This document shows, piece after piece, positions 32,847 through 34,103 of a stretch of DNA of 64,000 nt. Location of the stretch: the NCBI RefSeq assembly GCF_003334815.1, contig NZ_QOWO01000010.1; one strand, 5' to 3'. Below the pieces are notes generated by a model. The model searched no databases. It saw only the letters and a list, made by a program, of their open reading frames with translations, and was not told the DNA's origin. The DNA is from Escherichia coli (GTDB taxonomy: Bacteria; Pseudomonadota; Gammaproteobacteria; Enterobacterales; Enterobacteriaceae). Position 1 is the first letter of the stretch, and every line of letters starts with the position of its first letter. The translations under genes were made by a program, and so were the position numbers.

Positions 32847-34103
32847 TTACGCAGGCTGGAGCGTTGCGCCAATCCCGTCTTCGTCTGGCTGTAATTTCAG
32901 AGCGTTACACAGAGTTTGCCGACTGGCATCTGTTATCTCAACGTGTATATCCCCGGTAACTTCCCCTTTCACATTGATGAAGTCAGGTGAAATTTCTTTT
33001 GCACTGGTTTGCAGGCAAATCGCTCCCTCTCCGCGCAGGCGTTTCACTTTCAGTTGCACATGCGTTGCCGCATCAGTGATCAGCCACAGTTTTCCACCAT
33101 TCAGATTGATGTTACCAACAATGAAAGTGACACTGTCACCTTTTACCGTACTGCCGTCTAGAATCAACACACCGCCCTGCTGTACAGTAATCGTTGATTG
33201 TTGCAGCTCTGCGCCATAACCAATAATCATTGAAGCGCCGTCCAGTAATGCAACACTCCCGGTCAGTTCAACCGGTGCGCGATCTTCCTCTACGACAAAA
33301 TTTTCGTCCGCGCTGGTGGGTGACAACAGGATCACTGTCCCACCTTGTATTACCGCGTTTTCCAGCGTACCGGCATGCACTTCAGCCCGACCACCCACAT
33401 TCACGGACAGGTTTTGCGTCTTACCGGAACTGTAGAGCTGAAGGCCATCCGTCCCCAGACGATAAATGGATCCATTCTCAACAATAGTGTCAGAGTCTTC
33501 ACCACCGAGATTATTCATGGTGCCACCAGCAAGCAACGTATCACTGGCTTTCCCGGCCAGCATAAAAACGCCGCCCTGATTAATCTCACAATTGCTGGCT
33601 TCCCCACCTGGATACACCAACAATTCACCACCTTCATCTACCACGACCGCTGAGGTTGTCCCATTAACCAACAGGCCGCCCTCTTGATCGAGAATGATTT
33701 TTTCCGCGCGATGTCCTTCCAGTACACGCAGGTTACCGCCATTTTCCAGCAACAAACCGCAGGCATAACCTTTATCAACGCTGAATTCACCTTCGGGATG
33801 GCGGCCATTAACCGTAGCGAGCGTAGAGAGACTAATTGCGCCTCCCTCGGACTGAACAATATCTGTGGCAATGGCACCATCGCTGACCGATAGCGTGCCA
33901 TTGTTACCGTACTGTGTGCATTTGGCGATCCCACCGGTTGCCACTTTCAACCAGCCAGCCCCCGTGACCACGGTATTTTCGGCTCTTCCGCCAGCTTCAA
34001 CAATCAACTCGCCTTCAGTAAGTTGCGTCGCGCCAATGACCTCGCCGGTCTTAACAATTTGCACGTTCCCGTCGCTCATCAAGTTTTTCGCATCAGATCC
34101 CAT
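32847..34103 (-). CDS. ydhQ: autotransporter-adhesin-related beta-helical repeat protein
   Basis: 418-aa Gly/Thr/Asn-rich ORF with degenerate GG(x)-type repeats; recognised as YdhQ. Confidence 0.85.
   Translation of the reverse strand: MGSDAKNLMSDGNVQIVKTGEVIGATQLTEGELIVEAGGRAENTVVTGAGWLKVATGGIAKCTQYGNNGTLSVSDGAIATDIVQSEGGAISLSTLATVNGRHPEGEFSVDKGYACGLLLENGGNLRVLEGHRAEKIILDQEGGLLVNGTTSAVVVDEGGELLVYPGGEASNCEINQGGVFMLAGKASDTLLAGGTMNNLGGEDSDTIVENGSIYRLGTDGLQLYSSGKTQNLSVNVGGRAEVHAGTLENAVIQGGTVILLSPTSADENFVVEEDRAPVELTGSVALLDGASMIIGYGAELQQSTITVQQGGVLILDGSTVKGDSVTFIVGNINLNGGKLWLITDAATHVQLKVKRLRGEGAICLQTSAKEISPDFINVKGEVTGDIHVEITDASRQTLCNALKLQPDEDGIGATLQPA

Follow-up and report, generated by a model that had tools for sequence, protein, structure and literature searches.

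In a 64,000-nucleotide stretch of Escherichia coli DNA (contig NZ_QOWO01000010.1 of assembly GCF_003334815.1; hereafter the window), the gene ydhQ probably encodes a passenger fragment of the Ag43/AIDA type that has no means of self-export, resides in the cytoplasm, and is kept by selection. The architecture, fold, insertion, selection, and expression signals behind this reading come from the present analysis, and the detection of the protein and its cytoplasmic location come from the literature. Databases and papers already record the existence of ydhQ, the lack of a signal peptide in its product, and the uncertainty about its role. We add the failure of YdhQ to qualify as an autotransporter in scans with positive controls, the reconstruction of its insertion site, the depth of its conservation, and an estimate of selection. 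An earlier note on this window, made from the sequence alone, had described YdhQ as a passenger-like protein with no obvious translocator. Beyond that description, YdhQ also lacks the signal peptide and the N-terminal part of the passenger, and ydhQ is an insertion, found here in Escherichia and one sister lineage only, that is under purifying selection.

YdhQ consists of passenger repeats and part of a pertactin domain

The ydhQ open reading frame (ORF) is maximal in its frame, so that an in-frame N-terminal extension is impossible, and the protein begins with MGSDAKNLMSDGNVQIV. YdhQ belongs to the YdhQ family of NCBIfam (942.5 bits against a cutoff of 830), with residues 1-418 aligned to model positions 1-418. 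The identical locus in RefSeq E. coli genomes is annotated 'ydhQ: AIDA repeat-containing protein'. The description of YdhQ in the earlier note as a Gly/Thr/Asn-rich protein with degenerate repeats is confirmed by its composition (G 15.1%, T 7.9%, and N 5.5%, versus 7.1%, 4.6%, and 3.6% in five neighbouring genes, with Gly accounting for most of the enrichment) and by matches to two repeat families. Pfam PF16168 (AIDA) matches YdhQ three times at E<=6e-4 (best 2e-22; residues 31-69, 99-159, and 147-193), with further weaker matches, and the strand-loop-strand repeat model TIGR04415 of NCBIfam matches at E 1.7e-11 (43.9 bits, cutoff 30). YdhQ thus carries the tandem ~19-residue strand-loop-strand repeats typical of the self-associating autotransporters Ag43, AIDA-I, and TibA. 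Self-similarity within YdhQ peaks at lags 19, 36, and 54, and the best peak lies ~3.8 standard deviations over the mean maximum of 200 shuffles. Since the most extreme single shuffle (-0.02) is close to the observed peak (-0.06), this statistic alone gives weak support for the repeats. The repeat region aligns to Ag43 residues ~200-390. The best-conserved part of YdhQ lies around residues 90-135; for the 20-residue windows that begin at residues 91-111, the fraction of residues invariant in the orthologues reaches 0.85-0.95.

The AlphaFold2 model of YdhQ, built from a 14-sequence alignment, is all-beta and contains no barrel (mean predicted local distance difference test score (pLDDT) 88.5; predicted template modelling score 0.86). 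Short beta-strands run all along the model, longer hairpins occupy the last ~95 residues, and pLDDT<50 is limited to residues 1-6 and 264-275. In a Foldseek search against the PDB, the best matches were Ag43 (7KOH, 7KO9, and 4KH3; E ~1e-10), then TibA (E 9e-8) and pertactin, and a PDB sequence search returned the same set of structures. From the model and these matches, YdhQ is predicted to be an autotransporter-passenger beta-solenoid, neither a barrel nor a typical cytoplasmic fold, which supports the passenger beta-helix proposed in the earlier note. The low-confidence segment 264-275, within SADENFVVEEDRAP, is an acidic loop that is kept in 7 of 7 orthologues and falls in a gap in the autotransporter homologues. 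The whole protein is strongly acidic, with an isoelectric point of 4.42 and a net charge of about -27.

The passenger repeats of Ag43, AIDA, and TibA are the ancestors of YdhQ, which also resembles them in how it works. The alpha-domain of Ag43 (Flu/Cah) shares with YdhQ the 19-residue repeats and a hairpin motif, 'G.N..G.F.V..G.A....LENGG.L.VL.GH' (phmmer E 1e-22 to 9e-26; ~31% identity over YdhQ residues 26-379). Ag43 differs from YdhQ in its ESPR signal peptide, in ~200 additional passenger residues on the N-terminal side, and in possessing a complete autochaperone, linker, and barrel; YdhQ, for its part, has the extra acidic loop and more cysteines. The cytoplasmic heptosyltransferases Aah and TibC act on the AIDA-I and TibA passengers (PDB 4Q1Q), and these passengers share the PF16168 and TIGR04415 ('O_hepto_targRPT') repeats with YdhQ. 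In contrast to them, YdhQ has neither barrel nor signal peptide, and no heptosyltransferase gene adjoins ydhQ. Two complete relatives at 26-28% identity to YdhQ, P0121 (Citrobacter, 1175 residues) and P0106 (771 residues), have the order repeats, pertactin, and barrel, with the PF03797 barrel after a full Pertactin domain.

YdhQ lacks the parts required for type V export

On YdhQ, Pfam detected the AIDA repeats and a partial pertactin domain and nothing more. The match to PF03212 covers model positions 1-78 of 121, while P0121 and P0106 match positions 1-120, and YdhQ therefore has no complete autochaperone/pertactin junction domain. In the NCBIfam scan, YdhQ occupies positions 249-456 of the 948-position Ag43 model and the first 203 positions of the 643-position BafA C-terminal model. 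Its score for the Ag43/Cah equivalog NF033177, 88.8 bits, is far below the curated cutoff of 1200, which leaves YdhQ outside that family. The beta-barrel models PF03797 and TIGR01414 were absent from YdhQ in the Pfam and NCBIfam scans, which confirms the statement in the earlier note that a full C-terminal barrel is lacking. The same scans found ESPR at residues 1-47 and the PF03797 barrel at 914-1153 in P0121, the full Pertactin domain followed by the barrel in P0106, and TIGR01414 in a Kosakonia protein. Since these parts are detected in relatives, the absence of barrel and ESPR from YdhQ is meaningful.

BLASTP alignments show YdhQ to be collinear with the interior of P0121 (residues 445-805) and P0106 (residues 72-486), and full-length relatives have 70-640 residues before and 250-460 residues after the YdhQ-aligned region, barrel included. 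At the N-terminus of YdhQ, the maximum 10-residue Kyte-Doolittle hydropathy is 1.19, versus 2.3-2.7 in relatives, and there is no hydrophobic core. Pfam found PF13018 (ESPR) in P0121 and none in YdhQ, and SignalP 6.0 predicted no signal peptide in YdhQ, according to a 2026 display-toolkit paper (PMC13101318). A hidden signal peptide or upstream exon was considered and rejected. The 190 nucleotides upstream of the maximal ORF contain stops in all frames, and blastx of this segment gave no passenger or signal-peptide coding trace (best E 1.6), so the N-terminus is not extendable. A barrel remnant downstream was also rejected because only 40 nucleotides, terminator included, separate the ydhQ stop from mdtK. 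In tblastn searches with 102 full-length autotransporter relatives, no match was found in the 64-kb window outside ydhQ.

Of the features that define type Va autotransporters, the right-handed beta-helical passenger is present in YdhQ as judged by AlphaFold2 and Foldseek, and the signal peptide and the linker with its 12-stranded beta-barrel are missing. YdhQ is outside the autotransporter family as defined, because signal peptide, complete autochaperone, and barrel are all lacking. Without a Sec/ESPR signal peptide, and without a linker and 12-stranded barrel, YdhQ is unable to drive its own type V secretion. Two-partner secretion (type Vb) offers no alternative in the window, since Pfam found no haemagglutination-activity domain of the two-partner secretion type in YdhQ and no TpsB gene is adjacent (the neighbours are mdtK, two tRNA-Val genes, ydhR, and ydhS). 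The earlier note was thus correct that no secretion partner adjoins ydhQ, which is flanked directly by mdtK and the tRNA-Val genes. A role in a defence system was rejected as well, with no PADLOC family at E<=0.1. Other short, passenger-only matches (P0124, P0126, P0129, and P0115) mostly have signal peptides and look like calls cut by contig ends or frameshifts.

The display-toolkit paper names YdhQ a 'leaderless autotransporter' (PMC13101318), which would mean that YdhQ itself translocates N-terminal cargo once the cargo is periplasmic. In that paper, a reporter fused to a signal peptide and YdhQ is more active than one with the signal peptide alone. We give this explanation hardly any credence, since the defining barrel and linker are absent by Pfam, NCBIfam, and the AlphaFold2 model, and YdhQ ends inside the autochaperone domain. 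The caution of the earlier note, which had left open whether YdhQ reaches the surface, is borne out. The display effect could equally reflect periplasmic stabilisation, leakage, or vesicles.

ydhQ is an insertion between mdtK and a tRNA-Val pair

A search of 1.84 billion representative proteins gave no cluster at >=50% identity to YdhQ other than that of YdhQ itself; the next relative is a 1534-residue autotransporter at 38% identity, and there is no paralogue above that. The named orthologues are all from Escherichia or Shigella. Every one of 5426 complete E. coli genomes contains the ydhQ locus, and in 5423 a 2-kb query across it is covered to >=80%. In one of the three non-contiguous loci, that of E. 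coli AR_0013 (NZ_CP032204.1; L091 1175-4092), an ISEcp1 transposase has inserted into ydhQ and split it.

Between mdtK and the tRNA-Val pair, ydhQ is syntenic in E. albertii, E. marmotae, E. ruysiae, Escherichia sp. E4742, E. whittamii, and a deeper lineage, and the orthologues are 418-419 residues long and syntenic in every case; E. fergusonii is not among the matches listed. The deeper lineage (Logan assemblies SRR31578456, SRR26188688, and SRR26188687; L003, L089, and L090) has a 419-residue YdhQ at 71% identity. Its mdtK DNA is 83.7% identical to Escherichia mdtK, compared with ~81% for Citrobacter, and this enterobacterial lineage may be an undescribed sister of Escherichia. Four short proteins at 55-74% identity (P0027, P0028, P0044, and P0080) were not used as orthologues, since they are scrambled and look low-quality or frameshifted.

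The mdtK gene is syntenic in at least 80 Enterobacteriaceae loci. Of the non-Escherichia Enterobacteriaceae loci among the matches listed, 62 have the tRNAs downstream of mdtK and can be measured. In 45 of these, including Salmonella enterica arizonae, Citrobacter, Enterobacter, Leclercia, Lelliottia, and Kosakonia, the spacer between mdtK and tRNA-Val is 138-209 nucleotides long. This ancestral spacer consists of a terminator hairpin followed by a conserved tRNA promoter, and the Escherichia spacer is ~1600 nucleotides long with ydhQ inside. In an alignment by eye, the match to the Salmonella, Citrobacter, and Enterobacter spacer resumes near 34295-34300, and the inserted block therefore comprises the ORF and ~190 nucleotides of 5' sequence. 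ydhQ is thus a ~1.45-kb insertion, with its left boundary somewhere within the 40 nucleotides adjoining mdtK. A full-length ancestor at the same site in outgroups was rejected, as 0 of 75 non-Escherichia mdtK loci among the matches listed carry a ydhQ-like gene.

The spacer is >=379 nucleotides long in 17 further loci among the matches listed, and the dozen with ORFs examined contain unrelated cargo, indicating an insertion hot spot. The cargo-bearing spacers include L031, L048, L053, L056, L064, L069, and L077-L079 (about 9375 to 10300-14155 in locus coordinates). Judged by eye, Pseudescherichia vulneris seems to carry a TetR-like regulator and a short-chain dehydrogenase there, K. pneumoniae a LOG-like protein, Citrobacter sp. 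R56 an OmpC-like porin and a transporter, Raoultella a LysR-like regulator, and L053 an acyltransferase-like protein of 658 residues.

Directly 3' of the same tRNA-Val pair, Kosakonia oryzendophytica (L080, 9864-16394, minus strand) encodes a complete 2176-residue Ag43/AIDA-type autotransporter (919.8 bits for the Ag43 model and 166.9 bits for TIGR01414), the sole nearby autotransporter among the matches listed. We rejected it as the direct source of ydhQ, since the identity is 28-30% and the gene lies on the other side of the tRNAs. The Kosakonia case demonstrates that autotransporter genes do land in the mdtK/tRNA-Val neighbourhood. The mdtK locus is rearranged in the Citrobacter freundii complex, where ten loci (L028, L033-L036, L038, L040, L041, L044, and L050) have no tRNA-Val pair within 8 kb downstream of mdtK and several have a ydhR-like gene ~0.9-1.7 kb past the mdtK stop.

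We propose that ydhQ is a piece of an Ag43/AIDA-type (self-associating autotransporter) gene truncated at both its 5' and 3' ends, which retains several beta-helix repeats of 19 residues and, of the pertactin/autochaperone domain, the first two thirds. The entry of this piece into the short mdtK/tRNA-Val spacer, together with the ~190 upstream nucleotides, would predate the split of the known Escherichia species. Its own ATG and ribosome-binding site would be either later gains or old parts of the piece, which would end a few bases before the mdtK terminator.

Purifying selection maintains ydhQ across Escherichia

We estimated the ratio of nonsynonymous to synonymous divergence (dN/dS) by pairwise Nei-Gojobori comparisons of K-12 with five other Escherichia lineages. 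For ydhQ, dN/dS is 0.10-0.13 at dS 0.45-1.03, and it is 0.06 against the deepest lineage, where dS is saturated. These values resemble those of ydhS (0.07-0.10; dS 0.57-0.98) and ydhR (0.06-0.17; dS 0.15-0.72). The ratio is ~0.015 for mdtK and cfa (dS 0.44-0.75) and 0.015-0.039 for ribC (dS 0.45-0.97). Since the dS of ydhQ is about that of its flanks, the gene was inherited together with them. Along the gene, dN/dS is 0.04-0.13 for residues 1-325 and 0.16-0.27 in the truncated pertactin part, and every segment stays below 0.3.

The expression signals are conserved as well. Length (418-419 codons), ATG, Shine-Dalgarno sequence, and stop are the same across lineages with 12-31% nucleotide divergence. 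The ATG and its 'cagcaaaggaa' context are kept in seven orthologous loci, that of the 71%-identity lineage included. The hairpin downstream of ydhQ is terminator-like on both strands, and an equivalent lies 4-7 nucleotides past the ydhQ stop in every orthologous locus. In neutral, substitution-only simulations at the divergence actually observed (p = 0.17-0.28), the ORF stayed open in <=0.2% of replicates. The low dN/dS, the open ORF, and the conserved signals identify ydhQ as a selected gene and rule out a decaying relic. Since frame, length, start site, and sequence are held by purifying selection genus-wide, YdhQ does something useful.

Cellular location of YdhQ and competing explanations

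YdhQ has been quantified by K-12 proteomics (PMC6561319), co-purifies with EF-Tu (PMC2672614), and is among 17 unannotated proteins cross-linked to RNA by ultraviolet light in orthogonal organic phase separation (bioRxiv 10.1101/2023.07.03.547468). With vanillin, the level of YdhQ protein changed 5.5-fold. In the display-toolkit paper, the YdhQ fusion that carries no signal peptide is found in the cytosol, and no agarase activity appears outside the cells (PMC13101318). The earlier note had named a cytoplasmic fold assignment as an outcome that would contradict it. For localisation, the published experiments go partly in that direction, whereas the structural reading is not contradicted. YdhQ would accordingly be made and folded as a soluble, very acidic beta-solenoid in the cytoplasm. 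As a weak hint of life without outer-membrane translocation, its Cys content is 1.2%, versus a median of 0.51% in 102 secreted relatives.

Several points weigh against a selected, cytoplasmic YdhQ. Its dN/dS is ~7-fold above that of the housekeeping neighbours, and the constraint on ydhQ is therefore moderate. The ISEcp1 insertion described above is a natural, if rare, knock-out. The net charge of YdhQ makes direct RNA binding unexpected, and EF-Tu is a frequent pull-down contaminant. Owing to the strong acidity of YdhQ, we hold direct RNA binding to be unproven and treat the RNA and EF-Tu links as leads only. ydhQ also serves as a neutral chromosomal integration site (bioRxiv 10.1101/2023.03.28.534373). 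On the extracellular side, ydhQ is said to be needed for early adhesion in a second-hand statement citing Roux 2005 (PMC9110714), YDHQ appears among the gene names of a COG3468 cluster drawn from proteomes of extracellular vesicles (PMC10458587), and a foreign signal peptide joined to YdhQ raises extracellular agarase above no-anchor controls (PMC13101318).

The tolerated deletion and the natural disruption would fit a dead gene fragment whose decay is still to come, as would the truncation of ydhQ at both ends relative to every full-length relative. We consider this very unlikely. The low dN/dS at dS up to 1.0, the identical length and signals across lineages, the simulations, the presence of the gene in all complete E. 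coli genomes, and the detection of the protein all speak against it, and a non-functional relic is strongly disfavoured. Incomplete type V genes of E. coli K-12 such as ycgH, ydbA, yaiT, and yejO are annotated pseudogenes split by insertion sequence elements or frameshifts. In contrast to these, ydhQ is one uninterrupted ORF whose length is constant between species, and it is under purifying selection.

The adhesion, vesicle, and agarase reports would fit a YdhQ that leaves the cell unconventionally (by lysis, in vesicles, through the barrel of another autotransporter, or via BAM/TAM) and acts outside, where it might bind passengers of the Ag43 type and so modulate aggregation and early adhesion. 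The fold and repeats of YdhQ, which are those of self-associating adhesins, are also in keeping with such a role. We regard this main rival as unlikely. YdhQ has no signal peptide and no barrel, the window holds no other autotransporter-related sequence, and the leaderless fusion stays in the cytosol. The RNA cross-linking, the EF-Tu co-purification, and the raised Cys content also point to the cell interior. The display claim itself, in the available part of PMC13101318, rests on plate activity and fluorescence, not on protease shaving or fractionation. Taking YdhQ as a cytoplasmic protein, we infer that its selected function is intracellular, for example as a binding scaffold near the translation or RNA machinery.

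Features of the ydhQ locus

The coordinates of ydhQ, its parts, and the flanking anchors are listed in Table 1. In the same region, Rfam RF02194 (HPnc0260, 'bacterial antisense RNA') has a full-length match at 34530-34692 on the minus strand (112 bits; gathering score 59), which is antisense to the 3' end of the second tRNA-Val and the start of ydhR.

Table 1 Features in and around ydhQ, in window coordinates.
Feature	Position	Strand	Basis
mdtK (MATE efflux), left anchor, convergent, 40 nucleotides from ydhQ	31433..32806	+	ORF
Bidirectional terminator hairpin common to convergent mdtK and ydhQ	32815..32840	.	10-11 base pairs, 7 G-C
ydhQ coding sequence, 418 residues and stop	32847..34103	-	Maximal ORF; NCBIfam NF007409/PRK09945
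Truncated pertactin/autochaperone-type domain (residues 329-403)	32895..33119	-	Pfam PF03212, E 2.5e-5
Acidic loop specific to YdhQ (residues 264-275)	33279..33314	-	pLDDT<50
AIDA-type ~19-residue strand-loop-strand repeats (residues 9-211), beta-helix body	33471..34079	-	PF16168, TIGR04415
~190-nucleotide 5' untranslated/promoter region, part of the insertion	34104..34295	-	Boundary by eye, +/-15 nucleotides
Shine-Dalgarno AAGGA, 7 nucleotides upstream of the ATG (34103-34101)	34111..34115	-	Read from sequence
tRNA-Val(GAC) pair valV and valW, right anchor	34411..34568	+	ARAGORN; Rfam RF00005

Implications

YdhQ may represent an exaptation, in which a fragment of a secreted-adhesin passenger was captured and kept for an intracellular job, perhaps as an acidic beta-solenoid scaffold associated with the RNA or translation machinery. 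We put this forward tentatively, as a possibility that falls short of even odds. To our knowledge, and with no systematic check of the literature made on this point, an intracellular role has not been described for any type V passenger beta-helix, and YdhQ, if the proposal is true, may be the first.

Adhesin and autotransporter are the routine labels for ydhQ, comparative genomics lists it with the biofilm or virulence genes, and lately it has been put forward as a display scaffold. Since YdhQ is without both of the features that define autotransporters, these labels and the proposed display mechanism need re-examination. ydhQ is a core, selected, and expressed gene of Escherichia for which a deletion mutant already exists, and it provides a clean example of a gene fragment that has survived as a new protein.

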